Origin: a bacterium | GTDB taxonomy: Bacteria > Patescibacteriota > Microgenomatia > Levybacterales > UBA12049 | DNA: 64,000 nt | Assembly: GCA_021824155.1 (NCBI GenBank) | Contig: JAKALN010000001.1 | Location: 15 to 64,014 of the forward strand | Reading direction: 5' to 3' | Part shown: piece after piece, positions 15,451 through 56,124 of the stretch | How the letters are laid out: the number at the start of each line of letters is the position of its first letter | Numbering within the stretch: the first letter of the stretch is position 1 | Notes under the pieces: model-generated | Database searches by the model: none | The model's input: the letters and a program-made list of their open reading frames with translations, nothing else | Told to the model about the DNA's origin: nothing | Made by a program: the position numbers and the translations under genes

Positions 15451-15891
15451 TTAAATTTCTATTTTTCCGCCAGCTTTTTTTATTTTTTCTCCTGCCTTTT
15501 TTGATATAGGCAGTTTTATGGTTAACGGCATTTTTATCTCTCCGTCTCCCAAAATTTTTACCCCGTATATACCAGCTTCTTTTTCATCTACTATTTTTTT
15601 CGATATTAGTGCTTTCAAATCTATTGCATCATCTTTTTTAAATAGATTCAATGCCTTTATGTTAACGACAATAGGTTTTTTCTTGAAAACTTTATTCTTA
15701 CCTTTACCCCTTCTAAAAGGAAGTCTTTTTATAAGAGGTAGAGCTCCGCCTTCAAAATGAAGGGGTATTTTTCCTCTGGATTTTTGGCCCTTGGTCCCTC
15801 TTCCCGAGGTTTTTACACGGCCTGAACCATGGCCCTGACCCAGCCTTTTCTTCTCTTTTTTTGTAGTCTTTGAAAGATTACTTAGATTCAT
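15451..15891 (-). CDS. rplO: 50S ribosomal protein L15
   Basis: Gly/Lys-rich N-terminus and L15 core. Confidence 0.85.
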   Translation of the reverse strand: MNLSNLSKTTKKEKKRLGQGHGSGRVKTSGRGTKGQKSRGKIPLHFEGGALPLIKRLPFRRGKGKNKVFKKKPIVVNIKALNLFKKDDAIDLKALISKKIVDEKEAGIYGVKILGDGEIKMPLTIKLPISKKAGEKIKKAGGKIEI

Positions 15892-24910: not shown

Positions 24911-25065
24911 TGGGACGGACGAAACGAAGTGAAGGAGTCCGCTTGCGAGCGTAGCGAGACAAGGGAGGATCGGACGAAACGAAGTGAAGGAGTCCGCTTG
25001 CGAGCGTAGCGAGACAAGGGAGGATCGGACGAAACGAAGTGAAGGAGTCCGCTTGCCTGACAAGC
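24911..25065. repeat. GC-rich 55-bp tandem direct repeat, 2 full copies plus a partial third (unit GGACGAAACGAAGTGAAGGAGTCCGCTTGCGAGCGTAGCGAGACAAGGGAGGATC)
   Basis: Identical units start at 24916, 24971 and 25026. The third copy diverges after 30 nt. Confidence 0.9.
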
Positions 25066-25072
25066 GAGGTCT

Positions 25073-25381
25073 TTACATACGGATCTCAATATTTACTCCA
25101 GCTGGCAACTCTAGGTGTGTCAGTGAATCTATTGTTTTTTCTGTTGGGGAAACTATATCTATCAGTCTTTTATGGACTTTTATTTCAAAATGGTCTCTGG
25201 CGTTTTTATCTATAAATGGGGATTTGTTTACTGCGAATACGCTTCTTTTTGTAGGAAGAGGTATCGGACCTACGACTTTAGCTCCGGTCCTTATGGCCGT
25301 ATCTAAAATTTGCTGACACGTAGAGTCAATTACTCTTGCGTCATAGCTTTTTAATCGTACTCTTATTCTTCCTTTTGGCAT
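25073..25381 (-). CDS. rpsJ: 30S ribosomal protein S10
   Basis: MPKGRIRVRLKSYD start; 102 aa. Confidence 0.9.
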   Translation of the reverse strand: MPKGRIRVRLKSYDARVIDSTCQQILDTAIRTGAKVVGPIPLPTKRSVFAVNKSPFIDKNARDHFEIKVHKRLIDIVSPTEKTIDSLTHLELPAGVNIEIRM

Positions 25382-34723: not shown

Positions 34724-34804
34724 ATATTTTTTAAAATCCTAAATTTAAAATCCTAAATCCTAAAAGTTTAGAGTTTAGATATTGGTGTTTAGTGCTTCGC
34801 ACTA

Positions 34805-42082: not shown

Positions 42083-42112
42083 TTTTATACCATACATAAT
42101 TATGGGGTGTCA
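42083..42112 (-). promoter_or_regulatory. Candidate sigma70-like promoter for rpoB-rpoC (TTGACA-N18-TATAAA with TGn)
   Basis: Read on the minus strand: TTGACAccccataattatgtaTGgTATAAA, about 100 nt upstream of the rpoB ATG. Confidence 0.3.
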
Positions 42113-42127
42113 AGGGGGAATTTTATT

Positions 42128-42240
42128 TGAGGATGGACACTGGAAACTGGAAGTTCGACCTTGAAGCTGGAAAATAGAAATTGGAAATCTAACTTCCATC
42201 ATCGAACTTCAAATTCTAACTTCTATCATCTATTGTCTAC
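42128..42240. repeat. Palindromic TGGAA/TTCCA pentamer-repeat element, intact copy A
   Basis: The left arm has four GGAA/TGGAA repeats and the right arm has three ACTTC repeats, ending in TGTCTAC. Related copies lie at 54225, 52573/53011 and 45562. Confidence 0.6.
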
Positions 42241-42256
42241 CATCAACTAATGAACT

Positions 42257-43000
42257 TTATAAACTGGTGAATTCCAGCATTAGCGGTGAATGGTCGGAAA
42301 CAACATCCGGCAAAACTTTAAAATCCAAAACTTTAACGCCGTTAGATACCAATATATAATCCGCAAACAAATCCCCCATATCATACCTGTCGTAAAGTTT
42401 TGTCCTTGTAGAAGTTACTTTATATTCTTTAACAAGATTTCTTAAATTTTCTTCCAATATCAACAGGCTTTTCGTATCCGGCAACAAATTAAAATCCCCA
42501 GCCAGAATTTTTGCGCCTTTTTGTTTGTCTAAAAATTCTTTTACTTTTTTAGACTGTTCAAGCCTTTCCGGCGTATCGCCTTTTCCCTCTCTTATCCAAA
42601 GGCCGTGCATATGGGAAACAATAATGTCTTTTCCGTTTAGTTTAAACTTTATAAACTGAAGATTTCTTCCCTGGGTTGAGGGATCATTGTCTATCATTGC
42701 GTCCTGAAAGCGGTAAATGAAAAAATCCCCCTCCTCTTCTATATTTATAGTATTTTTAACAAATATAGAAAGACCCATGTTTTCCTGTCTTTTAAAAAAT
42801 CCTTTATGTCGGGGCAATAAATTTTCTATTATCGAATAAACATTTGGGACAGCATCCTGAAAAGTAACAGGATTTTTTCTTCCGTTAAATACTTCCTGGA
42901 AGCAAAAGACATCGGTGTCTTTATTTTCCGATATAAATTTTTTTAAAGGTTCTAAAATTTGTCCGCCCCAAATGTTTAAGGTTATTAATTTCACAAACAA
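42257..43000 (-). CDS. Endonuclease/exonuclease/phosphatase (EEP) family protein
   Basis: LNIWGG near the N-terminus and SDHSPL near the C-terminus. Confidence 0.7.
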   Translation of the reverse strand: MFVKLITLNIWGGQILEPLKKFISENKDTDVFCFQEVFNGRKNPVTFQDAVPNVYSIIENLLPRHKGFFKRQENMGLSIFVKNTINIEEEGDFFIYRFQDAMIDNDPSTQGRNLQFIKFKLNGKDIIVSHMHGLWIREGKGDTPERLEQSKKVKEFLDKQKGAKILAGDFNLLPDTKSLLILEENLRNLVKEYKVTSTRTKLYDRYDMGDLFADYILVSNGVKVLDFKVLPDVVSDHSPLMLEFTSL

Positions 43001-43044
43001 AATTATATCACGGAAAAAATTCTTAAAAGATCTATAATTAAAAT

Positions 43045-43620
43045 ATGGATATTCTTACAGTTTTAATTCTGCTTGCCCTTTTTATTTACATTATTAATGT
43101 AATTCCGTTTCTTATGCCTCCGACCTGGACTATTCTTGCCTTTTTTTACATAAATTACCATCCGCCTTTTATCCCGGTAATTGTCTTAGGAGCGGGGGCA
43201 GCAACTCTGGGAAGAATTACGCTTTATTATCTTTCCAAAAGATATTTCAGAAGGTTCTTCTCCCAAAAATCCCTTAAGAATTATGACGTTTTGGGAAAAT
43301 TTGTTACAAAAAATGAAAAGTTTTCCATTCCGATTTTTATTACCTATGCTTTTTTCCCTATTTCTTCAAACTATGTTTATATTGCGGCGGGACTTGCAAA
43401 AATAAACATAAAAATTCTTGCGTCTTCGTTTTTTGTGGGAAGGCTTATAAGTTATTCTTTTTGGGTTGCCGCTTCACATTATGCTGTTAGCAGAGTTGAA
43501 GATATTTTTACAAGCCATATAAATAATATCGGAGTAATAGCGGTAGAGCTGATAGGATTTATTATTGTTATTTTAATAGGAAAAATAAACTGGGGGAAAA
43601 TTTTAAAAATCCCGGCCTGA
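43045..43620 (+). CDS. DedA/VTT-family membrane protein
   Basis: PFLMPPTWTILAFFY ... LGAGAATLGRITLYYLSK. Confidence 0.65.
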   Translation: MDILTVLILLALFIYIINVIPFLMPPTWTILAFFYINYHPPFIPVIVLGAGAATLGRITLYYLSKRYFRRFFSQKSLKNYDVLGKFVTKNEKFSIPIFITYAFFPISSNYVYIAAGLAKINIKILASSFFVGRLISYSFWVAASHYAVSRVEDIFTSHINNIGVIAVELIGFIIVILIGKINWGKILKIPA

Positions 43621-43643
43621 AAAACAGGATTAAAAAGGTAAAG

Positions 43644-43970
43644 TTAAAGTTTTCCTGTTAATAAAGCCCTAAGGGGAGAAAGAACAACTGGAGTTTTTCG
43701 GGCTTCCCTTTGTTCTAAAACGGTGTCCGGTTTTAAGGATACTGCCGGCTCGCTGTCAAAACTGCTTATTTGGGCTTCCAAAGAAGCTATCATTCTTCTG
43801 TCTTCAATTGTAAGTCCTCCAAAAGCCGCCTGCTGTTTTAAATCTTCCAATCTTGCCATAGCGGCGTCACGTGATGCTGTTGGAGCTAGCGGTGTATGGG
43901 TTATATTTGCGTCGGGGGCGGGCACAGATTTTCCCTGCGCTTCAAGCGTACGTCTTAAAAATTCTCCCAT
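43644..43970 (-). CDS. Hypothetical protein (108 aa), GC-elevated
   Basis: ORF; no family recognised. Confidence 0.4.
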   Translation of the reverse strand: MGEFLRRTLEAQGKSVPAPDANITHTPLAPTASRDAAMARLEDLKQQAAFGGLTIEDRRMIASLEAQISSFDSEPAVSLKPDTVLEQREARKTPVVLSPLRALLTGKL

Positions 43971-44002
43971 GTCTTAGAATTTAATACTATATCAATCTTT
44001 TG

Positions 44003-44368
44003 TCAAGAAGCTTTTGCTCTACTATTTAAAAAATCCGTACTCACCTTAATTACCGCCTGCGCTCTTTGTGCAGTCACTTTATCGCGGTCCGATTTTTTCT
44101 CTTTTGCCAAAACATAATCCGAAACTTCCGTTGCCAAATCTTTTATAAGCCCAATCCTTTCAAGACCGGGCAAGCCGGAAACGGAAGCAAAAGAAACAGC
44201 ACCGGCCAAAACTCCTCTTTTTGCATACCATTTTGCCTCCGAAATAACGTCAAAACCGTCTTTTGCAAAAGTTTTTGCAATAAACATCCATTCCGTGCCT
44301 TCGGCTATTGCAACCAAATTTCCCATAACGGTTTCGGGAGTTTCATGCCTTGTGCCTTTCTCTGTCAT
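44003..44368 (-). CDS. Hypothetical protein (121 aa), GC-elevated
   Basis: ORF 32 nt upstream of the previous gene; no family recognised. Confidence 0.4.
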   Translation of the reverse strand: MTEKGTRHETPETVMGNLVAIAEGTEWMFIAKTFAKDGFDVISEAKWYAKRGVLAGAVSFASVSGLPGLERIGLIKDLATEVSDYVLAKEKKSDRDKVTAQRAQAVIKVSTDFLNSRAKAS

Positions 44369-44473
44369 AACAAGGAGGAATTATAGCACTAATTAAATTA
44401 AAGATTAAAGATTTATGGTTTATGAAGAAAAAACCAAGAAGTCAAAGCGAGGCTTTTTATAGTTCTATAATTA

Positions 44474-44482
44474 TGGTATAAT
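44474..44482 (+). promoter_or_regulatory. Extended -10 element TGgTATAAT 6 nt upstream of the small ORF ATG (possible leaderless transcript)
   Basis: Exact match to the nonamer found upstream of ispH, the Fic operon and alaS. Confidence 0.35.
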
Positions 44483-44488
44483 TTTGCC

Positions 44489-44614
44489 ATGAATAAGAAA
44501 AGCATAAAGTTCCTAAAAGAAAATAAATCTAGTAAAAAAAGAGAGATTAAACAATATACTAAAGAAGCTGTTTCTTTGTACGAAAAAACTCTTCGTAAAT
44601 TGGCCTATACCTAA
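44489..44614 (+). CDS. Small ORF (41 aa) abutting the Doc toxin start, candidate antitoxin
   Basis: Hand translation gives MNKKSIKFLKENKSSKKREIKQYTKEAVSLYEKTLRKLAYT. Its stop TAA is immediately followed by the Doc ATG. Confidence 0.3.
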   Translation: MNKKSIKFLKENKSSKKREIKQYTKEAVSLYEKTLRKLAYT

Positions 44615-45043
44615 ATGGCAAGGGATATTTATTATTTAAACCTCGAAGACATAAAAGAGCTTTGTTTTAATCTTGTAACTGAATTATTACAATTCCAGGA
44701 ACCAATTCCCGAATTTGAAACAAGATTCCCTGCCAAACTTGAATCTGTTCTGGAAACTCCAAGACAAACTTTTGGAGAGGATGAACTCTATCCAACTTTA
44801 TTTGATAAAGCTGCTTGTTATTTTTATTTTATTATCAAAAATCATCCTTTCCTAAATGGTAATAAAAGAATGGCAATTGTAACGACTTATGTTTTCTTAA
44901 AGGTGAACGGCTACATATTTTCAGCCCCATGGAAAATTATGTATTCTTTTGCAATTGAAATGGCAAATTCTTCAGAAGACCATAAAAAAGAATTTAAAAA
45001 AGTATTAACATTCATAAAGAAATACTCTAAAAAGAGTAAATAA
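44615..45043 (+). CDS. doc: Doc (death-on-curing) family toxin, Fic/Doc fold
   Basis: Signature HPFLNGNKR (Doc-type HxFx(D/N)GNKR). Confidence 0.7.
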   Translation: MARDIYYLNLEDIKELCFNLVTELLQFQEPIPEFETRFPAKLESVLETPRQTFGEDELYPTLFDKAACYFYFIIKNHPFLNGNKRMAIVTTYVFLKVNGYIFSAPWKIMYSFAIEMANSSEDHKKEFKKVLTFIKKYSKKSK

Positions 45044-45057
45044 AACCCTGTAGTAAG

Positions 45058-45077
45058 CAGATATACTAGTATATCTG
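45058..45077. repeat. Perfect 20-bp palindrome CAGATATACTAGTATATCTG
   Basis: Read directly; lies 15 nt after the doc stop. Confidence 0.6.
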
Positions 45078-45131
45078 CAATGTATCATGCACTAACCTAT
45101 GATACAGTAACCAGTAAACCAAGAAGTCGAA

Positions 45132-45554
45132 TTAGCTTCCGGAAAAAACTCTTCTTGGGGAAGGGCCCGGAAGATGAAAAATAATTTCATGGACTCTGAT
45201 ACTTTTGCCATCTTCCGAAGGTCCGGAAACTAAAACCGTGGCAGCATCTTGCGGTATTAATTGCGTTTTTCCTCCCGGAACAAATTCTCTTTTTCCCGAT
45301 GAATTATTAAAATATCCAACATTACTATCTTTGGGAAGAGCCCTATAAATGGCAGTTCCGTCTTCTTTAACAAGCAAATTATGCCTGTGAGTATTTCTTG
45401 TCCAGGAGGCAGGAGTTAAATCGTATTCTCCTTCGGGAAGAGGTACGACCCTTTCCATATTCCTTATTATAGTTTCTATTGCCCACTTCTGCGGGTCCCG
45501 CTTTGTAAATTCAAAAGGAATACCGCCTTCAAAATGTAACCGTTCGATAGTCAT
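45132..45554 (-). CDS. Hypothetical protein (140 aa)
   Basis: ORF; no family recognised. Confidence 0.4.
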   Translation of the reverse strand: MTIERLHFEGGIPFEFTKRDPQKWAIETIIRNMERVVPLPEGEYDLTPASWTRNTHRHNLLVKEDGTAIYRALPKDSNVGYFNNSSGKREFVPGGKTQLIPQDAATVLVSGPSEDGKSIRVHEIIFHLPGPSPRRVFSGS

Positions 45555-45561
45555 TTCAGTC

Positions 45562-45593
45562 CGATAGTATAGAAGTTAGAGTTTAAGAAGTCA
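45562..45593. repeat. Fragment D of the pentamer-repeat element, inverted orientation
   Basis: GTATAGAAGTTAGAGTTTAAGAAGTC resembles the reverse complement of the right arm of copies A and C. Confidence 0.35.
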
Positions 45594-45619
45594 AATTAAA
45601 ATTTGCAATTATATTTTAA

Positions 45620-45654
45620 ATATTACAATAATAAAAGCAGGGGTAAACCCCTGC
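45620..45654 (-). terminator. Rho-independent terminator (GCAGGGG-TAAA-CCCCTGC followed by a T-run on the minus strand)
   Basis: 7-bp GC stem plus TTTTATTATT, directly after the stop of the 59-aa ORF. Confidence 0.55.
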
Positions 45655-45662
45655 CAGACGAC

Positions 45663-45842
45663 TTATTTTTTACGCTCATGAGGCGTTCGCTCAACGAGAG
45701 TAAATTGTTGTCGTACTCCTACCGGATTCGGTGGGACTTTTTTACCTTCAACGAAGGTAAATTCGTCACTCCCTCCAGAGGGTCTATAAATACCTGAAAC
45801 AGGTACTTCTTCACCCGTATGGACTACTACTTTTTTAGTCAT
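45663..45842 (-). CDS. Small protein (59 aa), not in the ORF track
   Basis: Hand translation gives MTKKVVVHTGEEVPVSGIYRPSGGSDEFTFVEGKKVPPNPVGVRQQFTLVERTPHERKK. GAAAGGAGG RBS 6 nt upstream; terminator downstream. Confidence 0.45.
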   Translation of the reverse strand: MTKKVVVHTGEEVPVSGIYRPSGGSDEFTFVEGKKVPPNPVGVRQQFTLVERTPHERKK

Positions 45843-45985
45843 ATCAACCTCCTTTCTCGCTTTAAAGCGTGAGTTTAGAGAATTAAATCTCTTTTGAGCG
45901 CTAGCAATTGAAAAGAGGTTAGCAAGAGGTTTATCCCCTGTAGTAATATTTTACCGTAAGGATTCGGGGGTTTGCAAGGGATATT

Positions 45986-48514
45986 TTAAGAATTTTCTAC
46001 AATTTTTATTTCTTCTGGAGTTAAATCGTAAAGCTTGTAAACTTCTCCATCAATTTTTTTATCAGTTTTATCTATTTCTTCTTTTATTGAATTCCATTTA
46101 TTTGATCCTTCGGGAAAACTGAATAGTTCCTTATTCAACTTCAACATTTTACTGACAGGGTCCTCAAAAATCTTAATTTTTTGTTTTTCGTTAGGATAAA
46201 TTATTGGAATTTCCCTTAACTGTTCTATTCTAATTTTTGGGAAAATTTTAGTGTCTGGGGAAATGTAGGTTTTAAAATAAAATCTATAAAGCTTAGAGTT
46301 TAAAATTGCTAATACAAATAATAAAGAAGAATTATTTGTTGTTTTAAGATTATACAAACTTCTTGTGGTTATAACTCCTTCCTCCTCATAAGAAGCAATT
46401 ATTGAATCTCCTGTTTCTCTTACAATTATTTTTGGAGGAGAAAAAATATTATTTGTTTTTTGATATTTATCAAAGGTTTCGCTGTTGATATAACCAGAGG
46501 ATTTTATAACATATCTACCTATATCTCTTCCTGAAAAGCACTTAATTTTTCCTTCACTTTTTATTTTATCTTGTCCGATCTCAAGACCCCTTCGAATAAT
46601 ACTTAAAGCCCCCAATTTTACCATTTGATGCCTACGAAAAATATCTATTTTACTTTCAAAAAAATCTTTATTAGATTCATTTTGTTGTTTAGTTAAATTT
46701 AAAATACAAGTTGGCATATTTACGTTAGCAAAAACTCTATCGCCCATTTCTTTTAAAGTCACTTCTTTTGAATTTTCATTAATATATTTTCTTAGAGGTT
46801 GATACTCTAAACCTTTTAAGAATAAACTAGGAATAATGAACCCTAAATTCCCAAATGTTTTTAAATTATTAATAGACATTTCGATAAAAATCGAAAACAG
46901 ATCAAAATAACCTGAAGCTAAAATATATTTGTTTTTGAAAAAATTTACGTCCTCTTTCTTTAAAGAATACATATTTACGTAAGGCGGATTTCCTATTACC
47001 ACATCGAAGCCTCCTTGTTGAAAAATTTTTGGAAATTGTTCTTTAAAGTTAAAAGGTTTTTTCTTTCTGAAGTCTTTACCGAAATATTTTTCTAATTCTT
47101 TATCTGTTCCTGAAATTAAAGAATTCCCGTTTTTTATATTACTATTCAATGAAGGCAATTCTCCTTTTTCTCTCAATGTGTTTATCAATAGATTTAGTTT
47201 TGCAATTTCAACAGCTTGTTCATCTAAATCAACTCCAAAAATATTATCTAAGAGAATTTGTTTTCTTAAATTTTCATCGTCCTCATAATTAAATTCTATG
47301 TATTTTTCAACAATTACCTCCAAGGCTTTTACTAAAAAAGAACCTGAGCCGCATGCTGGATCTAATACTTTAATTTTTTTTAAATCATTAACGCTAACGC
47401 ATTTATCTAAAACTGGTTTTAGGGCATTTCTTACAATGTAATCAACTATAAAAGCAGGCGTATAATAAATACCTTGTTCTTTCCTTTTTCCCGCAGCTTT
47501 ATCTAAGCTTAAACCTTTTTGCGATTGAGATAATTTATATCCTAAATAATTCTCATATACACTACCTAGAATATCAGCCGGAATGACTTTAAAGTCATAT
47601 TCATTATAGCCCTCAGTTCCATATAAAATTTTTATGACCTTCTTTGTAGAATCTCCATAGTCTACCCAATTTTCAAAAGGATGTGGGGAAAAAAGATTAG
47701 AGTTATATACTTTATCAAGCTCTCTAAATTTTGAAATCATAAAAGCATAAAGGGGCTTTTTTCTATCACTATTTTCCCAAGATCTTAAAAGTGGAATTAG
47801 CGTTGAAGGTTCAATACCTCTATCCTCCGCAACTCTAATAAAAATTAATCTATCTAAAAGTCTTTGAACTCCTTCATCTAATAATTCCTTATCTATTCCC
47901 TCATTCATGACATTTAAATCATTTGTTAATATTTCTCTGCATTTATTAAAATCTTTGTACAATGAATCCGTAATCGGAGATTTTATAATTTTTTTGCCAA
48001 CTCTTTCTGCTTCTTTATCTAGAAGGTTATTTAAAAAAGAATCCTTCGACAAAAGCCAGAGTTGTTCGAATCTCTCTAAATATTCATCATAATTAATACT
48101 AAAAAATAATTTATCTCCTAAGTACTTTGACGCTGCTTTTGCATTAAAAACCTTCAGTCCCTCAAAATCAGTTAAAATTGCCCATGTAACATCTCTATTC
48201 CAAGAGTATCTAATTGCTTGCCTTGCATATTCTTCCTGATTTAAATCGGCTTTTAATGGCTTTGCTTCAATATAAAGCTTAGCTCTCCCATTTATATAAA
48301 GCCCAAAATCAACTCGACCTGATGATAAAATACTTTCTTCAGCTGAAACCTCCTCCTTATTTGAGAAATCCCAACCCAATACTTCAAATAGTGGTTTTAT
48401 AAAAGCATTTTTTGTTTCTTCTTCTGTGTAGCTCTTGATTTTCCCAGAGGTTTTCACTTGCTCGTATTTAGCAATTAATTTCTTAACTTCTTCTTTAGCT
48501 TGTTCCTTATTCAT
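45986..48514 (-). CDS. Type IIG restriction-modification enzyme (MmeI-like: N-terminal PD-ExK nuclease, gamma-class N6-adenine MTase, C-terminal TRD)
   Basis: D-x13-EAK near the N-terminus. MTase motif I VLDPACGSGSFL and motif IV VIGNPPYV. 842 aa. Confidence 0.75.
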   Translation of the reverse strand: MNKEQAKEEVKKLIAKYEQVKTSGKIKSYTEEETKNAFIKPLFEVLGWDFSNKEEVSAEESILSSGRVDFGLYINGRAKLYIEAKPLKADLNQEEYARQAIRYSWNRDVTWAILTDFEGLKVFNAKAASKYLGDKLFFSINYDEYLERFEQLWLLSKDSFLNNLLDKEAERVGKKIIKSPITDSLYKDFNKCREILTNDLNVMNEGIDKELLDEGVQRLLDRLIFIRVAEDRGIEPSTLIPLLRSWENSDRKKPLYAFMISKFRELDKVYNSNLFSPHPFENWVDYGDSTKKVIKILYGTEGYNEYDFKVIPADILGSVYENYLGYKLSQSQKGLSLDKAAGKRKEQGIYYTPAFIVDYIVRNALKPVLDKCVSVNDLKKIKVLDPACGSGSFLVKALEVIVEKYIEFNYEDDENLRKQILLDNIFGVDLDEQAVEIAKLNLLINTLREKGELPSLNSNIKNGNSLISGTDKELEKYFGKDFRKKKPFNFKEQFPKIFQQGGFDVVIGNPPYVNMYSLKKEDVNFFKNKYILASGYFDLFSIFIEMSINNLKTFGNLGFIIPSLFLKGLEYQPLRKYINENSKEVTLKEMGDRVFANVNMPTCILNLTKQQNESNKDFFESKIDIFRRHQMVKLGALSIIRRGLEIGQDKIKSEGKIKCFSGRDIGRYVIKSSGYINSETFDKYQKTNNIFSPPKIIVRETGDSIIASYEEEGVITTRSLYNLKTTNNSSLLFVLAILNSKLYRFYFKTYISPDTKIFPKIRIEQLREIPIIYPNEKQKIKIFEDPVSKMLKLNKELFSFPEGSNKWNSIKEEIDKTDKKIDGEVYKLYDLTPEEIKIVENS

Positions 48515-48620
48515 TTAAAGCCTATAGGTGGATAATAGCACTTTATGGTTCGACTTTCTAGCTCAACATCGTCCTTTTTACCTACATCCTATTTTTTTCT
48601 ATGCCACTTTCCATTAATCT

Positions 48621-48896
48621 TTATACCTTTACTCCTTTTTCCAATTCTTTTATTTTTCGTTCCATTTTTTTCATCCGTTTTTCCGCAATTTGCATTTCTT
48701 TATAAAGAAAAATAATAAAAGCACCAGACAAAGTTAAGAAAAATATTTGAAAAGAAAAATTACCTCTAACAAAAAGGTCGTAAATTATATTTCCGGTAAT
48801 ACCGAATAATAAACCAAAAAACAAGGCAAGAATAAATAAGCCCGTGTTTCTTTCCTTTTCTCTTATTTCTTTAAGTTCAGATTTTAAGGCTTTCAT
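48621..48896 (-). CDS. Small membrane protein (1-2 TM plus C-terminal coiled coil), last gene of the Ubl-E2-JAB-E1 operon
   Basis: Hydrophobic core then Lys/Glu-rich helix. 1-nt gap from the E1 gene. Confidence 0.4.
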   Translation of the reverse strand: MKALKSELKEIREKERNTGLFILALFFGLLFGITGNIIYDLFVRGNFSFQIFFLTLSGAFIIFLYKEMQIAEKRMKKMERKIKELEKGVKV

Positions 48897-48897
48897 A

Positions 48898-49758
48898 TTA
48901 TCTTAGGATTTTATCAATTCCATTTTTGGGGTAACGTTCAATATCTGCTTTATCTCCATTTCCTAATACAGTTTTGCAATAGTAACAATCCTGAATTGGA
49001 TCTATATTTTTGGTTAAAATACTTAAATCTCCTCTATAGGTGAGGTATTTATTTACTTTTCTAATACTAGTAACTGCTGATATGAATTCTGAAACAGCTA
49101 TTGAAGCTATAGTACCATTTAATGAAACTACAGCTGGACCCGTATTTTTTATTACTTCTTTTGGAATTCCATATATGTTATCCTCTGCTGAGCGGTCCGC
49201 AGGGGTTGATAAATCTCTTCTAATTTCCTCTGAAGATAACAAGCCTCTACAGAATAAGCAACCAGGCTCAGAGTTTGAAAAAACTACTCTTCCGCCCCAA
49301 TCATCCTTTGAGATTTGAGAGGCTAGATCAAAATAATTTATTTTATAAGCTTTTGAAAATTCAGTTAAAACTAATCTAGCTCCGTCCTTATCTACGCATC
49401 CAAAAATGTAATTTACACGTTTTAATGCTTTTATACTAATTTCCGAAATAAAGCTGTCTCCAACACTATAGACAGACATATCTTCTGATATAAATTTTAG
49501 GTTTCTTTCTGCAATATTAACCTTTAAGTTATTTATGTCTTTTTCATTAGCACCTATCAACCTATTTAGATTTGTTTTGCTTACTATATCAGCATCAATT
49601 AAAACAAAATCCTTAACCCCCAAATACGCTAATTGTTGAGCAACATGAGATCCAATTCCGCCTAAGCCAACAATAGCTACTCTTGTTTTTTCAATTTCCA
49701 TCTGACCTTTTATGCCAACCCATAATATATTTCTGTTATATTTATTGTTCTCATCCAT
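48898..49758 (-). CDS. E1-like ubiquitin-activating enzyme (ThiF/MoeB fold)
   Basis: VAIVGLGGIGSHVAQQL Rossmann/ATP motif; paired CxxC (CLFCRG ... CYYCK). Confidence 0.75.
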   Translation of the reverse strand: MDENNKYNRNILWVGIKGQMEIEKTRVAIVGLGGIGSHVAQQLAYLGVKDFVLIDADIVSKTNLNRLIGANEKDINNLKVNIAERNLKFISEDMSVYSVGDSFISEISIKALKRVNYIFGCVDKDGARLVLTEFSKAYKINYFDLASQISKDDWGGRVVFSNSEPGCLFCRGLLSSEEIRRDLSTPADRSAEDNIYGIPKEVIKNTGPAVVSLNGTIASIAVSEFISAVTSIRKVNKYLTYRGDLSILTKNIDPIQDCYYCKTVLGNGDKADIERYPKNGIDKILR

Positions 49759-50257
49759 ATTTTTTTTGAAAGGAAATATTTGTAGGTTTTAAAAATTTTT
49801 TGTTTACGATGATTGAATTTAACCTAACCGAAGTATTGCCATCTTTCAACCACACTTTGGCGTCAAAATCGCTTCGTCCAAAAACAAGTGCAATATAAGG
49901 TTTTTTTTCTAATCTCCAGAAAATATAAGGTACAAATTCTGCCAGCTCAGACAAATCAAATTCAGAGAACGTAGTATTGGAAAAAGAAAACGGATGTGAA
50001 TGAATTTCACAAAGGGAAAAATTTTTCAAAAAAGCTTTTTTTATTATTTTGGAAATTATTTCATCCTTTGTTTCTAAATAATACCTATCCTCATTGTCAT
50101 CAATATATATAAAATCTCCGACCTCAAAAATTAAAGACGTAGTGTTTTCTGAGTAAGTCAAGAACAAAAAAATATTTTGTTCAAATCTACTCTCATCCAA
50201 AAATTTTTTGATTTTTAAGAAGTCTTTTTTTTTAAATTTGAGAAATATACTTTTCAT
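49751..50257 (-). CDS. JAB/MPN (JAMM-like) metallopeptidase
   Basis: EIHSHPFSFSNTTFSEFD gives HxH...SxxD. Confidence 0.6.
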   Translation of the reverse strand: MKSIFLKFKKKDFLKIKKFLDESRFEQNIFLFLTYSENTTSLIFEVGDFIYIDDNEDRYYLETKDEIISKIIKKAFLKNFSLCEIHSHPFSFSNTTFSEFDLSELAEFVPYIFWRLEKKPYIALVFGRSDFDAKVWLKDGNTSVRLNSIIVNKKFLKPTNISFQKKYG

Positions 50258-50646
50258 GATTCCTCCTTAAATCTTTCTTTAAAACTTCTAACGAAGTTTA
50301 GTAGATTGCTTCCTGAATTTATATCTGAAGTTGGTTTCCAAGAGTTATCTTGAACCCAGGAAAATTTCCCCCATTCGTTTCCAAAAGGTGTAGATACCGG
50401 CTCGGTATAACTTCCTGGGATGGACTGTTCATTTGCTTTTATTCTTATTCCCCTTGGAACATAAAAAGCATAAGGAGGCTCTCCGGGATATCCAATCGGA
50501 ATTTGGAAACATATATTCACAATATCCCTATTCCAAGCATTACTAGAAATTTTAAAATTGTTAATAAAAATCCAGCCATCTTTATACTCGAGATCGCCAA
50601 ATTCTTTTTTTAGAATTTCTAATTCTTTTTTAATTCTTTCATTCAT
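50254..50646 (-). CDS. Putative E2-like (UBC-fold) protein
   Basis: Assigned from operon context (between the Ubl and JAB genes) and YPGEPPYAFYVP; no clear HPN motif. Confidence 0.4.
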   Translation of the reverse strand: MNERIKKELEILKKEFGDLEYKDGWIFINNFKISSNAWNRDIVNICFQIPIGYPGEPPYAFYVPRGIRIKANEQSIPGSYTEPVSTPFGNEWGKFSWVQDNSWKPTSDINSGSNLLNFVRSFKERFKEES

Positions 50647-50882
50647 CCTCTTTTATATTGAACTTTTTTTCCATACCTATGACCGGGTTTAAGAGTAACA
50701 ATGTCATCTTCCGCAAGAGTTTTCTCATTTCCCTGAGGATCTATTTCAATTACTGGTTGTTCGGAGGGTAATCCTCCCAAACTTCTTATTTCTGGGACAG
50801 TAATAGTTTCCTTATCCCAAGGATACTCAGTTCCCTCAATTTCAATAAAATATTTTGGCCCGTTTCCCATTTTTCTTTTCAC
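50643..50882 (-). CDS. Putative ubiquitin-like (beta-grasp) protein, 79 aa, ends in Gly
   Basis: First gene of the operon; AGGAGGTG RBS 8 nt upstream; C-terminal ...YKRG. Confidence 0.35.
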   Translation of the reverse strand: MKRKMGNGPKYFIEIEGTEYPWDKETITVPEIRSLGGLPSEQPVIEIDPQGNEKTLAEDDIVTLKPGHRYGKKVQYKRG

Positions 50883-50979
50883 CTCCTTTTTACTACTTGA
50901 ATTTTTGTAAAAAGTGTTGTATTATTTTTACAACAATAGAATTAAAAAGTCAAGCAATAAGATCTGATATAATCATGCT

Positions 50980-51333
50980 ATGAAAACTTTTGGCAAACTA
51001 CTCAGAGAAAAAAGAATTGCACTTGGCTTCACTCTCCGTACATTTTGTGGAAGATTTGGGTACGACCCAGCTTATATTAGTAGGCTGGAAAGAAATTTAA
51101 TGCCTGCTCCTGAAAGCAAGGAAAAAATTGAGGCATTGGCTAATGCTCTATCCATAGAAAAAAATAGCCCAGATTGGGTTGAATTTTTTGACCTAGCTTA
51201 CTTGTCGAAAGGAAAAATCCCTGAAGATATTGGCAAAAATGATCATCTCCCACTCTTATTTCGAACTATCAGAGGAAAGAGGCTTTCTAAACAACAACTT
51301 GAAAAGCTAGTAAAGCTTCTAAATGAATCATGA
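50980..51333 (+). CDS. XRE-family HTH transcriptional regulator
   Basis: HTH (LRTFCGRFGYDPAYISRLERN); divergent from the Ubl operon. Confidence 0.7.
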   Translation: MKTFGKLLREKRIALGFTLRTFCGRFGYDPAYISRLERNLMPAPESKEKIEALANALSIEKNSPDWVEFFDLAYLSKGKIPEDIGKNDHLPLLFRTIRGKRLSKQQLEKLVKLLNES

Positions 51334-51923
51334 GCTTTACTACAAAACCTATCTCTTATAGAAAGATAGGAGAATTAGCAGAGGATTTTCTATCAAAATA
51401 TCATCCTTCTTTTTCTCTCTCTGTACCCATCGAAGAAATTGCAGAATCTAAACTTGATATTCAAATTGTTCCCGTTGTTGGAATAAAAAAGGATTATGAC
51501 ATGGATGCATCTCTCTGCTCTAATTTCAATACAATTTTCATTGACTATAACTTTTATATGAATCGTGAAAATAGAAGTAGATTTACAATTGCTCATGAGA
51601 TTGGCCATCTTATCTTACATAAAGATTTGTTCGAGTCTCTTAAAATCTTTAATATAGAGGATTTATTTAAAATTTCAGAGTCAATAAGTGATAACGAGTA
51701 TAGATGGATGGAATATCAAGCTTATTCTTTTGCAGGCCATGTATTAGTTCCAAAAAAACTACTAATTGACGAAATAAAGAAAAAGTTGGGTAGAGTACCA
51801 AGCGAAGAAAATCCTGAGTCTCTTTATCCTGTAATTCAAGATCTTTCTGACATCTTTAAGGTCTCTGAGGATGTCATACTTAGACGACTTCAAAAAGAAA
51901 AAATGGTAAAGAGCAATCATTAA
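51330..51923 (+). CDS. ImmA/IrrE family metallopeptidase
   Basis: HEIGHLILH (HExxH), with a 4-nt overlap with the HTH gene. Confidence 0.75.
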   Translation: MSFTTKPISYRKIGELAEDFLSKYHPSFSLSVPIEEIAESKLDIQIVPVVGIKKDYDMDASLCSNFNTIFIDYNFYMNRENRSRFTIAHEIGHLILHKDLFESLKIFNIEDLFKISESISDNEYRWMEYQAYSFAGHVLVPKKLLIDEIKKKLGRVPSEENPESLYPVIQDLSDIFKVSEDVILRRLQKEKMVKSNH

Positions 51924-51924
51924 C

Positions 51925-52548
51925 CTAATGATTGAGTTCTATTCCCGAAGCATCATTGATGGAAAGAGTTTCACTGCAACTGTTGAAACTTCCCGTAACC
52001 AAAACCGAAGTATTATTAAAAGGAACGAGGTTTATGTTTTCGTTAAATGGAATATTTAAAGTCGTTCCGTCGGTCTTTACCAAAATTGTCCTGTTGATAA
52101 TTTTCGATGAACTATGAACCATAAGAATTGTGTCGATGAGCGAAAGCGGACCATTATATATTTCCCTGTAATTTAAAACTTTTATTGTTCCTATGTGGGT
52201 TTGCACACCTTTATCGCAGATTACCCGGTTTCCTCCAAAAAGTCCGAAAACCGAAAGGACTAAAATAACCCCTGCAATTCCCAAACTGCCTTTAAGTGTA
52301 AAAGAAAAAGCTTTTTGGTTTTTTATTTCCTCCAAAAGCTCTATTACACGTCTTAGCGGATTTCCGATTCTAATATCAAGGAGGTCTTCCTGATCTTTGT
52401 AATTGCCGGTGTGGCTGGCAAGGAAAGTAGACAGTGGATCGTGGAGGTTAGAAAGACCGGGAACTTTAATAAAGTGACCTTTCTCGTCGCGGGGACGAGA
52501 AGATGCAACTTCTCCTTTGAGTTTATCTTTGGCTTGAGCACTAGCCAT
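51925..52548 (-). CDS. Hypothetical single-TM protein (207 aa)
   Basis: ORF with one hydrophobic helix (GIAGVILVLSVFGLFG). Confidence 0.4.
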   Translation of the reverse strand: MASAQAKDKLKGEVASSRPRDEKGHFIKVPGLSNLHDPLSTFLASHTGNYKDQEDLLDIRIGNPLRRVIELLEEIKNQKAFSFTLKGSLGIAGVILVLSVFGLFGGNRVICDKGVQTHIGTIKVLNYREIYNGPLSLIDTILMVHSSSKIINRTILVKTDGTTLNIPFNENINLVPFNNTSVLVTGSFNSCSETLSINDASGIELNH

Positions 52549-52572
52549 ACCTTAAATATAACATAAACTTTT

Positions 52573-52636
52573 GATGGTGGACAATGGAAACTGGAAGCTA
52601 GAACTTGAAGCTTGATGATAGAAGGTAGATAATAAG
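52573..52636. repeat. Left half (B) of the pentamer-repeat element
   Basis: GATGGTGGACAATGGAAACTGGAAGCTAGAACTTGAAGCTTGATGATAGAAGG matches the left arm of copies A and C. Confidence 0.5.
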
Positions 52637-52641
52637 TTAAA

Positions 52642-53004
52642 GTGATTAAAACCTTTCGTGATTTAGAGGTTTACAACGAATCCTACTCCTTAATGATTCT
52701 TGCTCACAAATTAGCAAAAACTCTTCCCGTCTATGAACGTAATGATTTGGCTTCTCAAATAAGAAGAGCTTCAAAATCTTGTCCTGCTAATATTGCAGAG
52801 GGTTGGGCTAAAAGGAGATTTGAAAAAGAATTTAAACACCATTTGGATAGCGCAATCGGTTCAGCAAACGAAATGGAAGTACATATAGAAACCGCAAGAG
52901 ACTTGGGATATTTACAAGAAAATTTTTCAAACGATATTCTGGTTCGATACCAAAAACTAGGCGGGAAATTAAGAAATCTGCAAAGAAACTGGAAAACATA
53001 CTAA
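52642..53004 (+). CDS. Four-helix-bundle protein (23S rRNA intervening-sequence protein family), GTG start
   Basis: 120 aa with the typical family length and helical pattern. Confidence 0.65.
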   Translation: MIKTFRDLEVYNESYSLMILAHKLAKTLPVYERNDLASQIRRASKSCPANIAEGWAKRRFEKEFKHHLDSAIGSANEMEVHIETARDLGYLQENFSNDILVRYQKLGGKLRNLQRNWKTY

Positions 53005-53010
53005 TCAAAT

Positions 53011-53057
53011 GTCTATCCTCTAACCTCGAAATCCAACTTCTATCTTCCACCGTCTAC
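53011..53057. repeat. Right half (B') of the pentamer-repeat element
   Basis: CTAACCTCGAAATCCAACTTCTATCTTCCACCGTCTAC matches the right arm of copies A and C. Confidence 0.45.
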
Positions 53058-53076
53058 ATTCAAATTATGCTCCGCA

Positions 53077-53085
53077 TGGTATAAT
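53077..53085 (+). promoter_or_regulatory. Extended -10 element TGgTATAAT upstream of the 53092 gene
   Basis: Exact nonamer 7 nt before the ATG. Confidence 0.4.
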
Positions 53086-53091
53086 TAGCGC

Positions 53092-53412
53092 ATGGCAGAA
53101 GGACTGGAAGCCCATATTACACCGGATGAGGCTTTTTGGAAAAAACCTCCAATACCTGAAAAAGAAAAGCCTTTAAATTTAAAAGAAAAGGCTTTTTATC
53201 TTGCATTGGACTCCTTTCCCGAAGCAACCCAAAACCTTATAGCCTCTTTATCCACAAGTTTTTTAGAAGCAGACGTTTATAACGAATTTAAAAACAGCAA
53301 AGGAAGCATCAGTTCTTTAAGAAAGAGGTTAAAAGGCCAAGGTTTAATGCAGGAGCAAGTAGAGCTTGTTCTTGATTTTTTCAAGCTGCCTTACGAAAGT
53401 CCAAAAAGATGA
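53092..53412 (+). CDS. Hypothetical protein (106 aa), partner of Fic
   Basis: 4-nt overlap with the downstream Fic gene. Confidence 0.45.
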   Translation: MAEGLEAHITPDEAFWKKPPIPEKEKPLNLKEKAFYLALDSFPEATQNLIASLSTSFLEADVYNEFKNSKGSISSLRKRLKGQGLMQEQVELVLDFFKLPYESPKR

Positions 53413-54134
53413 GTCCAGATAAGCCATCCCACCAGCTGCAAGAATTAGGAAACGAATTTAAATGCCAGAAATTGGTTAATCAATGGCTTGGCGACCATAT
53501 CCCAAGCAGCCAAATTATTCCCCATCTGCATAAACAGCTTATGGACGGAAGTGACGACTACGCAAAAAAAGGGATATTACCAGTACCGCCCGGAGTTTAC
53601 AGGAATATAGACGTTGCAACCGACGGGGAACCTGCAAATTACTACGCATTTGGCCTTGACGTTGCCCCCGCTATGGGAAAATATACCAAAGACCTTGATA
53701 ATTTACTCCGAAACTTACCAAGAAACCCTATTGGAAATATTGATTCTATAGTAGAAAACGCCGCAAGATATTATTACGCTTTTGAAAGAATACATCCTTT
53801 CCTGGACGGAAACGGAAGAATTGGAAGAATGATTTTAAAAAGGATATTAAGGGGCGCCGGCCTAAAAGATTTGGTTTTTAGGTCCGATTTGGGCAAAGGA
53901 AGAAACGCTCATCTGGACGCAATAAAAGCGGTAAACAGATCGGGAAACATTGCATACATAGAAATTTATCTGTTAGACCAGATCGGCTTAAGGTATATGG
54001 GAGAAAGGGACGAAAATTTTTCCCTCGAAATCCAAAGAGCCCGCCGGAAAAAAACCGATAACATACAAAACCAGAAATACCCTTATCCCGTAACTGATAT
54101 TTGGGAAGGGTTTAAAGGTTTAGACATCGCATAA
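53409..54134 (+). CDS. fic: Fic family protein (AMPylase-type)
   Basis: Canonical HPFLDGNGRIGR. Confidence 0.8.
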   Translation: MSPDKPSHQLQELGNEFKCQKLVNQWLGDHIPSSQIIPHLHKQLMDGSDDYAKKGILPVPPGVYRNIDVATDGEPANYYAFGLDVAPAMGKYTKDLDNLLRNLPRNPIGNIDSIVENAARYYYAFERIHPFLDGNGRIGRMILKRILRGAGLKDLVFRSDLGKGRNAHLDAIKAVNRSGNIAYIEIYLLDQIGLRYMGERDENFSLEIQRARRKKTDNIQNQKYPYPVTDIWEGFKGLDIA

Positions 54135-54204
54135 ATTATATACAAGAAATTTGATGATAGACCAAACTTCTAACTTCAAATAAATCAAATCGGGCTTTGG
54201 AATC

Positions 54205-54213
54205 TGGTATAAT
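54205..54213 (+). promoter_or_regulatory. Extended -10 element TGgTATAAT upstream of alaS
   Basis: Exact nonamer; element C lies between it and the alaS ATG. Confidence 0.4.
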
Positions 54214-54224
54214 GAGTATTAATT

Positions 54225-54335
54225 GAGGATGGACAGTGGAAGCTAGAAACTGGACCTTGATGTTAGAAGATGGAGGCTTGAATCTGACTTCTAACTTCCA
54301 ACTTCTATATCTAACTTCAAGCATCTACTGTCTAC
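54225..54335. repeat. Palindromic TGGAA/TTCCA pentamer-repeat element, intact copy C
   Basis: GAGGATGGACAGTGGAAGCTAGAAACTGGACC...CTTCTAACTTCCAACTTCTATATCTAACTTCAAGCATCTACTGTCTAC. Confidence 0.6.
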
Positions 54336-54351
54336 TCTCAAAATATTTTCG

Positions 54352-56124
54352 ATGAATATAAAAGAGATTATTGATGTTTATATAAGTTTTTTTGAAAAAC
54401 GCGGGCATAAGAGAATTGCAAATTCTCCGCTTGTCCCGGAAAACGACCCTACTACCCTTTTTACATCATCGGGTATGCAGCCTTTAATCCCATATCTTTT
54501 GGGAGAAAAACACCCCCAAGGAGACAGGCTTGTTGACGTACAAAATTGTTTTAGGGCAGTTGATATAGACGAAGTTGGTGATAATCGTCACACAACTTTT
54601 TTCAGGATGCTTGGAAATTGGAGTCTGGGAAGTTATTTTAAAAAAGAGGAAATCCCAATGCTTTGGGAATTTTTAACTAAAGAACTAAACCTTCCCAAAG
54701 AAAAACTTTATATAACAGTATTTGCCGGAGACGGAGGGGTTGGAAAAGATAACGAAGCTTTTGAAATTTGGAAAACGCTTGTTCCCGAAAATAAAATTTT
54801 CTTTGCGGGAGTTGATAAAAATTGGTGGTCTAGAAGCGGAGTGCCGGATAATATGCCCGTAGGCGAACCTGGCGGGCCCGATACCGAAGTTTATTACAGA
54901 TTTGACGATTTAAAACATAACTCTGAGTGCAAAGATAACCCCGTTGAATGCGAATGCGGAAAGTTTTTGGAAATCGCAAACTCTGTTTTTATGCAGTATC
55001 TAAAAACAGAAGAAGGATTTAAGGAATTACCCCAGAAAAACGTAGATTTTGGAGGAGGAGTCGAAAGACTTTTGGCAGCAGTTGAAGACAAACCGGATAT
55101 CTTCCAAACCTCCCTGCTCTATCCCGTTATAAAAACTATTGAAAAACAAACGGGAGCTTCTTATGGAATTAAGAATTATGAATTAAGAATTATGACCGAC
55201 CATTTGGTTGCGGGAGTTTTTATTTCAAGCGCAAACGTTAAGCCTTCAAACAAAGAAAGAGGATATATTTTAAGAAGGTTGCTTAGAAGAAGCTTTGATA
55301 ACTTATACAAACTTAAAACTGAAAACTTAGAACCTATAATTGAAACAATAGTCCAGCAATATAAAGATACGGATCCGTATTTGATAAATAATTTTGAGGA
55401 AATTAAATTTACAATTTTGGAGGAAGAAAAAAATTATAAAGGAACACTTTCGCGGGCAAAAACTTTTATCGACAAAAAATATCCCGGAAAAGAAGCGGAA
55501 GGCGTTAAAGAAATTTCCGCCGAAGATGCTTTCCTTTTGTATTCAACCCACGGACTTTCCCCAACCCAAATAAGAAGTTTGGGGTACGTTTTTAAGGAAG
55601 AAGATTTTGCGGTTTTAATGGAAGAGCACCAAAAATTATCAAGACTTGGTGCTTCACAAAAATTCAGGGGAGGGCTTGCGGATACAAATGAGCGGACAAT
55701 AATGGGACATACGGCAACCCACCTTTTACATAAAGCCTTAAGGGATATGTTTGGAGACCAACTTCACCAGACAGGAAGCAATATTACAACAGAGAGGCTA
55801 AGGTTTGATTTTAATTTTGACAGAAAATTAACCGGGGAAGAAATAGAAAAATTGGAAGATGTTGTTAACGGAAAAATAAAGGAAAACCTTCCGGTGCATT
55901 TTGAAATAATGCCGTTAAAAAGGGCAAAAGAACTGGGGGCAATAGGCCTTTTTGACGAAAAGTACGAAAATGACGTAAAAGTTTATTTTGTAGGCGATTA
56001 TTCAAAAGAGTTTTGCGGAGGCCCGCATGTAGATTTTACATCGAAGCTAAAAAGGTTTAAGATAATAAAACAGGAAAATATAGGTAACCGCCAAAGAAGA
56101 ATTTATGCGGTGGTCGGCGAATAA
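54352..56124 (+). CDS. alaS: Alanine--tRNA ligase, compact form (catalytic plus editing motifs, no C-Ala domain)
   Basis: FTSSGMQP, RHTTFFRMLGNWSLGSYFK, HTATHLLH and CGGPHV. Confidence 0.8.
   Translation: MNIKEIIDVYISFFEKRGHKRIANSPLVPENDPTTLFTSSGMQPLIPYLLGEKHPQGDRLVDVQNCFRAVDIDEVGDNRHTTFFRMLGNWSLGSYFKKEEIPMLWEFLTKELNLPKEKLYITVFAGDGGVGKDNEAFEIWKTLVPENKIFFAGVDKNWWSRSGVPDNMPVGEPGGPDTEVYYRFDDLKHNSECKDNPVECECGKFLEIANSVFMQYLKTEEGFKELPQKNVDFGGGVERLLAAVEDKPDIFQTSLLYPVIKTIEKQTGASYGIKNYELRIMTDHLVAGVFISSANVKPSNKERGYILRRLLRRSFDNLYKLKTENLEPIIETIVQQYKDTDPYLINNFEEIKFTILEEEKNYKGTLSRAKTFIDKKYPGKEAEGVKEISAEDAFLLYSTHGLSPTQIRSLGYVFKEEDFAVLMEEHQKLSRLGASQKFRGGLADTNERTIMGHTATHLLHKALRDMFGDQLHQTGSNITTERLRFDFNFDRKLTGEEIEKLEDVVNGKIKENLPVHFEIMPLKRAKELGAIGLFDEKYENDVKVYFVGDYSKEFCGGPHVDFTSKLKRFKIIKQENIGNRQRRIYAVVGE

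Follow-up and report, generated by a model that had tools for sequence, protein, structure and literature searches.

Why should a palindrome of little more than 100 bp recur between the protein genes of one bacterial genome, and why should one copy be split by a gene of the kind found inside 23S rRNA intervening sequences (IVSs)? The question arises from a 64,000-nt stretch of a Levybacterales bacterium (contig JAKALN010000001.1, positions 15 to 64,014; hereafter the window), for which an earlier reading made without database searches, the sequence-only reading, had described two intact copies (A and C), a copy B split by an open reading frame (ORF) for a four-helix-bundle protein, and a module resembling an IVS or a miniature inverted-repeat transposable element (MITE). 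We think it probable, though well short of certain, that A, B and C belong to a selfish family of IVS-type cassettes living outside rRNA, that A and C are ORF-less miniatures of it and that, by analogy with rRNA IVSs, the arms are excised by RNase III.

Copies were detected with an nhmmer profile built from A, B and C and run on the window, together with a covariance-model search. Copy A was recovered at E 2.7e-36 (covariance model 119.5 bits) and copy C at E 1.4e-35 (113.7 bits), and both folded as long imperfect hairpins of ~50 bp (A, -35.9 kcal/mol, z -5.3; C, -46.2 kcal/mol, z -6.2), with 0 of 200 shuffles equally stable in either case. The two halves of copy B aligned with the corresponding halves of A and C, left with left and right with right, and its arms formed a sense-strand duplex of -47.2 kcal/mol (z -4.1). 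The three copies are thus homologous, at nhmmer E values of 1e-36 to 1e-14, and the earlier account of two intact copies, one split copy and a foldable stem was borne out. Copy B would be the full form, and A and C correspond in sequence to its two arms joined at a short loop. Besides A, C and both B arms the nhmmer scan of the window gave no hit below E 0.1. A fourth, inverted fragment proposed at 45562-45593 was not recovered (nhmmer E>10; covariance model E>1), and a promoter-like site of the neighbouring minus-strand gene overlaps that interval. One candidate remnant just upstream of copy C, with termini that look by eye like TTGATG...ATCAA, scored E 1.4-2.6 with nhmmer and E 0.4-1 with the covariance model. 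Pairwise identity among the three copies in these 64 kb is 72-76%, and each is equally close or closer to copies from other genomes. A and C were therefore not derived from B within this genome, as the three copies are not each other's closest relatives. Coordinates are collected in Table 1.

Table 1. Positions of the three copies, their parts and the surrounding features in the window.
Feature	Position	Strand	Support or remark
Copy A, ORF-less hairpin, ~8 heptads per arm	42126-42247	+	nhmmer, covariance model, fold, lag-7 periodicity
Copy B, full-length cassette (left arm, PF05635 gene, right arm), 494 bp	52570-53063	+	
Left arm of B, purine-rich heptad array TTGATGGTGGACAATGGAAACTGGAAGCTAGAACTTGAAGCTTGATGATAGAAGGTAGAT	52570-52630	+	nhmmer E 1.3e-14; lag-7 z 6.0
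PF05635 (23S_rRNA_IVP) / TIGR02436 gene of B, 120-aa four-helix-bundle protein, GTG start	52642-53004	+	
Right arm of B, pyrimidine-rich heptad array complementary to left arm, end ...CCGTCTACATTCAA	~53008-53063	+	nhmmer E 1.1e-13; lag-7 z 4.7
Possible heavily deleted copy (TTGATGATAGAC...CTTCTAACTTCAAATAAATCAA), not statistically significant	54146-54184	+	right edge of variable segment
Extended -10 box TGGTATAAT of alaS	54205-54213	+	directly before copy C
Copy C, ORF-less 121-bp hairpin between alaS -10 box and alaS ATG (54352)	54222-54342	+	
Variable segment: A, 12-kb accessory gene set, B, possible remnant	42103-54190	.	

The arms had been described as built from pentamer iterons (TGGAA/TTCCA), and this did not hold: they are heptad repeats, with ~8 units per arm. 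Lag-7 identity was 0.52-0.64 (z 4-6) in all six arms, with 0 of 2000 shuffles as periodic, and reached z 5.4-6.0 in the arms of copy A. When seven ORF-less copies from five sources were aligned, the invariant columns spelled T[G/A]GA at 7-nt intervals in the left arm and TC[T/C]A at the same spacing in the right, with three free positions between. The homology runs the full length of the element and past the repeat core to the termini TTGA...TCAA, conserved across copies as TTGAnnnT[G/A]GA ... TC[T/C]AnnnTCAA. Hairpins with other heptad units were also observed in the window, at 9260-9350 (TTTGGAA/TTTAGGA; minus-strand fold -22.9 kcal/mol) and more weakly at 34734-34790 (AAATCCT/TTTAGAG), so that this genome has more than one heptad palindrome family. 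A repeat of another kind lies at 24916-25080, where ~2.6 head-to-tail copies of a 55-nt unit (CGGACGAAACGAAGTGAAGGAGTCCGCTTGCGAGCGTAGCGAGACAAGGGAGGAT), the first two identical, look G+C-rich beside the ~35% G+C of the hairpin copies.

The gene enclosed by the arms of copy B scored 92.6 bits against Pfam PF05635 (cutoff 33.8) and 88.3 bits against TIGR02436 (cutoff 24), and its product matched PDB 2gsc at E 4.6e-12. The conserved (G)xxRxxxSxxxNxxE motif of the family (PMC3936711) is present as RxxxSxxxNxxE (...IRRASKSCPANIAEG...), the leading G missing. We place the start at the GTG because homologues begin MIKTFRDLEVY and the window protein VIKTFRDLEVY; the NCBI annotation starts instead at an internal ATG, and the public record would be corrected to GTG 52642. 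The matching NCBI contig, DAIEQC010000043.1 of GCA_027348085.1, starts inside rpoB at window 41903, and an identical AlaS protein is recorded on a 128-kb ENA contig, so that the window seems to stem from a longer assembly of this organism. More than 950 close homologues (73-87% identity) were found in Levybacteria, Curtissbacteria, Berkelbacteria and Microgenomates. Between the genes of loaded cassettes the protein sequences are conserved as well as the nucleotide sequences or better (identity 72-84% and 70-77%), so that the PF05635 gene is under purifying selection, and the arms diverge alongside the gene. PF05635 proteins are homologous to Avd, a nucleic-acid-binding partner protein of diversity-generating retroelements (DGRs), and the structures 2GSC and 4DWL are related (PMC10053308). 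The B protein has a four-helix-bundle fold homologous to that of Avd and differs in matching TIGR02436 and in having no DGR context. A DGR/Avd role was set aside on the Pfam table of genes within +/-10 kb, which held no RVT domain; no search aimed specifically at template and variable repeats was made.

How copies relate to the genes around them is clearest at alaS. The order in the window is -10 box, 9 nt, copy C, 10 nt and alaS ATG, with a predicted transcription start at ~54220. Two relatives lack the copy, and their homologous box stands 7-9 nt before the alaS ATG: L181 (81% alaS identity) reads TGGTATAAT-taagtta-ATG and L182 (84%) reads TGATATAAT-tagctttag-ATG. Copy C was not found in the spacer of L183/L184 (74% alaS identity) either, and a covariance-model search with filters off gave no copy in the spacers of L181, L182 and L183/L184. 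Downstream synteny is kept in the relatives (alaS, ~795-aa gene, sortase, PYNP, YceG). The absence of C from the orthologous alaS leader of three relatives marks it as inserted, at roughly the transcription start. The box itself belongs to a motif, TGNTATAAT, found at 14 sites in the window where 2.6 would be expected (0 of 100 shuffles reach 14); a generic sigma-70 scan was not enriched (46 sites vs 42 expected), and only the extended -10 motif was informative. This enrichment places C most likely at the very 5' end of the alaS mRNA, which is near-leaderless in the relatives, and fits the earlier proposal of C as a structured 5' leader between promoter and alaS. Boxes of this motif were also seen 6-9 nt before start codons at window 53077-53085 and 43002-43010, L181 277-285 and L182 272-280, so that leaderless mRNAs seem common in this lineage.

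Such a position raises the alternative that the hairpins are host cis-regulatory structures in leaders, 3' ends and operon spacers that tune adjacent genes such as alaS, the PF05635 gene being incidental. C sits exactly at the predicted alaS transcription start, and all ORF-less copies have a gene boundary, either a start or a stop codon, at a distance of 2-24 nt. Copy A lies 9 nt past the stop codon of the gene at 42257-43000, on the minus strand, and also stands upstream of the promoter region of rpoB, which makes it antisense to both neighbours. The absence of C from the orthologous leaders of three relatives speaks against host regulation, as do neighbour genes that are unrelated between loci, the occurrence of both orientations, stems without a following U-tract (none appeared in a terminator scan) and the co-occurrence of the arms with the ORF across phyla described below. 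We regard this alternative as improbable.

A family of inserted cassettes should also be met in other genomes, and copies were sought there by pattern scans followed by profile and covariance-model searches; the counts hold among the matches listed. ORF-less copies were found in L027 (a Patescibacteria metagenome-assembled genome, MAG), L111 and L072 (two contigs of one low-GC MAG), L120 (an 863-kb metagenome contig), L123, L124 and L168. Loaded copies in the metagenome contigs L127 and L121 have the same arms and a near-identical 120-aa ORF, frameshifted in L121. In the further loaded copies L147, L158, L162 and L168 the arms abut the ORF, the purine-rich heptad array touching the start codon and the complementary pyrimidine-rich array touching the stop codon. 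Empty and ORF-loaded copies therefore both exist in many other genomes of the Candidate Phyla Radiation (CPR). Matches between genomes reach E 1e-20 to 1e-24, at only 70-82% identity. A broad 16-base pattern scan of genome contigs returned, among the matches listed, mostly unrelated sequence and some heptamer arrays in other phyla. None of 18 pattern matches in viral contigs was a true element, and phage genomes gave no protein match.

Several related structures were observed in these contigs. A second PF05635-like ORF, which is degenerate (hmmsearch E 2.6e-11), was seen in L162 at 15534-15791, within a 476-bp gap where no gene is called; it is flanked by CAAATTGA/GTTAATTTG-type repeats and not by TGGAA heptads. 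A 230-bp TGGAA-type hairpin was seen with a second, TTGA/TCAA-rich hairpin nested in its loop, and the latter family was also found on its own in the same genomes (nested or TTGA/TCAA sites at L072 2247-2477; L120 2559-2677 and 3356-3464; L111 1138-1280 and 7241-7355). Hairpin loop tips may be preferred insertion points. Arrays of nCTGGAA heptamers immediately precede genes (glgA-like, rpsK-like) on contigs of Methylomirabilota, NC10, Anaerolineae, Victivallales and Acidobacteriota (L084 3940-4120, L095 minus strand 682-972, L079 6970-7150, L070 7160-7210, L045 minus strand 2065-2355), some of them forming hairpins with 60-90-nt loops.

The same searches bear on the suggestion that the elements are slippage products, heptamer simple-sequence repeats that arose locally and are palindromic by chance, with neither mobility nor common origin. 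The presence of nCTGGAA arrays in unrelated phyla would suit it, and heptameric repeats are known to be over-represented in bacterial intergenic DNA (PMC4692102, PMC4679880). Slippage does not account for homology that continues past the repeat core into TTGA...TCAA, with E values down to 1e-36 in the window and 1e-20 to 1e-24 between genomes, nor for the constant association with one protein family. Judged by this cross-genome sequence homology the suggestion appears largely refuted, and we consider it very improbable.

If arms and ORF form a cassette, PF05635 genes elsewhere should be similarly enclosed. We assembled 21 PF05635 loci: six from CPR, eleven cyanobacterial, one each from Riemerella, Gemmatirosa and Azospirillum, and one chance cyanobacterial chromosome locus (L029). 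A tblastn search of plasmids returned mainly cyanobacterial PF05635 genes, Nostoc supplying 21 of the 42 plasmid records with a match. Local complementarity was scored between the two flanks of each gene, 100 nt on either side, with 205 genes from the same loci as controls. The score was at least 30 in 14 of the 21 loci from CPR, cyanobacteria, Bacteroidota and Azospirillum, the gene there lying between inverted arrays of 7-8-nt repeats, compared with a control 99th percentile of 28, and only ~1% of controls reached 34. By eye, tandem arrays of 7- or 8-nt period flank all PF05635 loci but one, with lineage-specific units such as GCAGAGGA in Nostoc, GGTGACA in Anabaena 90, AAGGTTT in Riemerella and GGGAAAA in Geminocystis; the arrays are one-sided in L180 and L187. 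The Azospirillum locus, L173, taken as positive control for residence in rRNA, lies inside large-subunit rRNA (2548.8 bits) and is a genuine 23S IVS, and it has the same order of heptad arm, PF05635 ORF and complementary heptad arm (units CAGAGGA/CGGATGA). The arm-ORF-arm plan with lineage-specific units of 7-8 nt thus surrounds PF05635 genes in distant phyla as well as in a true 23S IVS.

Outside rRNA, cassettes were found in operon spacers between cas10 and cmr3, between cas6 and cas4 (twice) and between a DUF499 gene and a hypothetical gene. In Picosynechococcus PCC 7003 (L179 1457-1884) an arm-PF05635-arm unit separates cas10 from cmr3, where plasmid pAQ6 of PCC 7002 has a 12-nt spacer without arrays (L191 1023-1034). 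One strain has the whole of it and the other has none; arms and ORF are therefore a single unit. In place of 28 nt, among them the last codons of cas10, the inserted cassette brings new last codons and a new stop. Arms and ORF travel together, and copies come and go at orthologous sites, namely the alaS leader and this cas10-cmr3 spacer. PF05635 genes have been noted in cas loci before (PMC3936711), and 23S_rRNA_IVP ORFs are described in the literature from rRNA insertions of CPR bacteria.

Taken as IVS-type cassettes, the copies would act at the RNA level. A host transcript that runs through a copy would let the arms fold into a ~50-bp imperfect duplex; RNase III, by extension from rRNA IVSs, would cut this duplex so that the insert leaves the host RNA, and in copy B the cut would free the ORF message. 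Removal of copy C could restore a near-leaderless alaS mRNA like that of the relatives. Such removal would explain why insertions so near to gene boundaries are tolerated. We regard the cassette as most likely selfish. A purine-rich arm stands upstream of the ORF in nearly all informative lineages, and this asymmetry points to a constraint at the level of transcript or translation.

Several results weigh against this interpretation. The sense strand carried no signal of selection for pairing, as G.U-type and A.C-type mismatches numbered 40 and 35 over 15 loaded loci, and copy B alone had 4 and 11. Fold energies were similar on both strands, with no preference, and ORF-less copies are sense to their neighbours in 4 cases and antisense in 4-5. 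Cognate arms paired no better than non-cognate arms (permutation p 0.97, 0.77). Mismatches are more frequent in the stems than in the proven Coxiella stem of 28 bp with one mismatch and one bulge (PMC4990558), and identities of only 70-82% give no sign of recent movement. Finally, the arrays on both sides are direct and not inverted in L175 and L188, and L186 has none. Invariant G.U wobbles in the seven-copy alignment had been considered as proof of selection on RNA and were dropped, given neither mismatch bias nor strand preference.

The lack of a cognate advantage indicates that complementarity is carried by the conserved 4-nt heptad core and not by compensatory change, and this leaves real room for a DNA-level element. 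Here the arms would be arrays of recognition motifs (T[G/A]GA per 7 bp), multi-site terminal inverted repeats on which either the PF05635 protein itself or a trans-acting recombinase would act; B would then carry a passenger in the manner of a mobile insertion cassette (MIC), A and C would be its MITE-like miniatures, and the RNA hairpin would be a by-product. A conserved core with free 3-nt spacers and no covariation between cognate arms agrees with this, as do the indifference to strand and orientation, the presence/absence polymorphisms, and the homology of PF05635 to nucleic-acid-binding Avd (PMC10053308). Direct arrays at some PF05635 genes suit motif arrays better than a stem. DNA-level mobility is harder to reconcile with the target sites: no shared direct repeat that would mark a target-site duplication was found at any of 12 copies, and no transposase, integrase or other recombinase was consistently nearby in the contexts examined. 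The copies are few, old and diverged, the Picosynechococcus insertion replaces 28 nt and is not clean, and recognition of DNA ends alone does not predict a purine-rich arm almost always upstream of the ORF. We rate a DNA-level element as rather unlikely, and retain IVS-type cassettes as the favoured interpretation.

Comparison with known systems places these cassettes nearest to IVSs. IVSs with an S23p/PF05635 ORF occur in the 23S rRNA of Leptospira, Coxiella and Brucella; their defining site is the rRNA gene, typically the tip of 23S helix 25 or 45, RNase III excises them from the precursor RNA without religation, and ORF-less short forms are known among them (Salmonella type). The cassettes share with them complementary termini around a sense-oriented ~120-aa PF05635 ORF and a size of ~430-760 nt. 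Unlike rRNA IVSs, copy B is flanked by protein genes outside rRNA, the arms are longer and more mismatched, and ORF-less copies are scattered among the leaders of mRNAs and the spacers of operons. Heptad arms are a likeness to the Coxiella IVS, which has GACAGAT heptamers upstream of S23p and has been shown experimentally to be cut by RNase III (PMC4990558). An Rfam scan of the window at gathering thresholds gave only one tRNA, and 52500-54400 gave nothing at E<=1, so the element, which matched no Rfam family at gathering or at E<=1, is intergenic and not rRNA-resident, yet IVS-like, as the sequence-only reading had proposed.

Palindromic repeats of similar size, ERIC/IRU and the Correia repeats of Neisseria (CREE/NEMIS), were reportedly described by Hulton in 1991 and De Gregorio in 2002-2003. 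ERIC and Correia repeats are imperfect palindromes of ~100-150 bp in transcribed intergenic DNA, near genes in either orientation and with size variants bearing internal insertions, and Correia hairpins are RNase III substrates. They resemble our element in size and location. They differ from it in that the element has no sequence relation to them, occurs in other taxa at very low copy number, has heptad arms, makes no TA duplication and has a protein-coding full-length form. With MITEs and MICs the element shares an empty and loaded pair, inverted termini and presence/absence polymorphism; unlike them it has no target-site duplication, no transposase-encoding parent and no bursts of near-identical copies (three in 64 kb). 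The proposal of a MITE/IVS-like module is borne out in its core: empty and loaded forms occur at independent loci and a true IVS has the same plan, whereas these three classical marks of a MITE are lacking. Integron cassettes, in which a single imperfect palindrome (attC) follows a promoterless ORF, differ in that here the ORF lies inside the palindrome and there is neither an integrase nor a cassette array.

Heptameric repeats form a further comparison. Two papers describe cyanobacterial STRR (short tandemly repeated repetitive) sequences, GGGGA(T/C)T in Nostoc, GGGAATC in Xanthomonas and TAACTGA in Beggiatoa and Microcystis, with heptamers over-represented in Nostoc and Xanthomonas (PMC4692102, PMC4679880). 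Like the arms, these consist of 7-nt units in tandem between genes, frequently placed directly before start codons and in some cases paired as inverted arrays, and taxa with many of them also have many PF05635 genes. The searched text of both papers holds none of the terms 23S, S23, intervening or four helix (PMC4692102, PMC4679880).

Copies A and C, in the same orientation, stand at the two edges of a segment that varies between relatives. L183/L184 have a spacer of 271 nt between rpoB and alaS, which are direct neighbours and divergent, and homology to the rpoB leader ends at window 42102; two core genes thus enclose a variable segment that holds A, the accessory genes, B and the possible remnant. 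Its genes (42257-54134) include an Exo_endo_phos gene, a VTT-domain gene, two Fic genes, an Eco57I/MmeI-type restriction-methylase fusion, a helix-turn-helix and Peptidase_M78 pair, and a ThiF, Prok-E2_E and Multi_ubiq set for ubiquitin-like conjugation. In L181 (200-300) a homologue of the window gene 53092-53412 lies inverted beside alaS, preceded by a ~25-nt remnant of a B-type right arm (GCTTCCGCCTCAA), suggesting a rearrangement with its breakpoint in an arm.

The association of an IVS with an S23p ORF has been known for ~30 years, and the origin and function of IVSs are still called unclear (PMC4990558). Our literature search, mostly outside subscription journals, found nothing that ties PF05635 genes beyond rRNA to inverted short-period arrays or to ORF-less miniatures; the link between PF05635 genes and heptameric repeats is made here, on 21 loci. 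With an arm-ORF-arm unit between ordinary genes, IVSs become one niche within a wider family of cassettes. Two further observations gain a candidate explanation: the PF05635 genes inside cas loci (PMC3936711), and the heptamer excess of Nostoc, the source of half of the PF05635-matching plasmid records, where such repeats are over-represented (PMC4692102). The alaS leader insertion and the cas10-cmr3 site of the culturable Picosynechococcus pair provide simple test systems. A wider proposal, which we put forward only tentatively and hold to be doubtful, is that rRNA IVSs are a minority of a large unrecognised class, a PF05635 gene with 7-8-nt arrays, that inserts in mRNA leaders, operon spacers including those of cas loci, and rRNA helix tips; that much of the heptamer-repeat excess (STRR and others) would be its miniatures or footprints; and that the PF05635 protein would recognise the arrays. 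On the evidence of the 21 loci, the cassette may possibly be the general lifestyle of PF05635 genes and possibly also a source of heptameric intergenic repeats.

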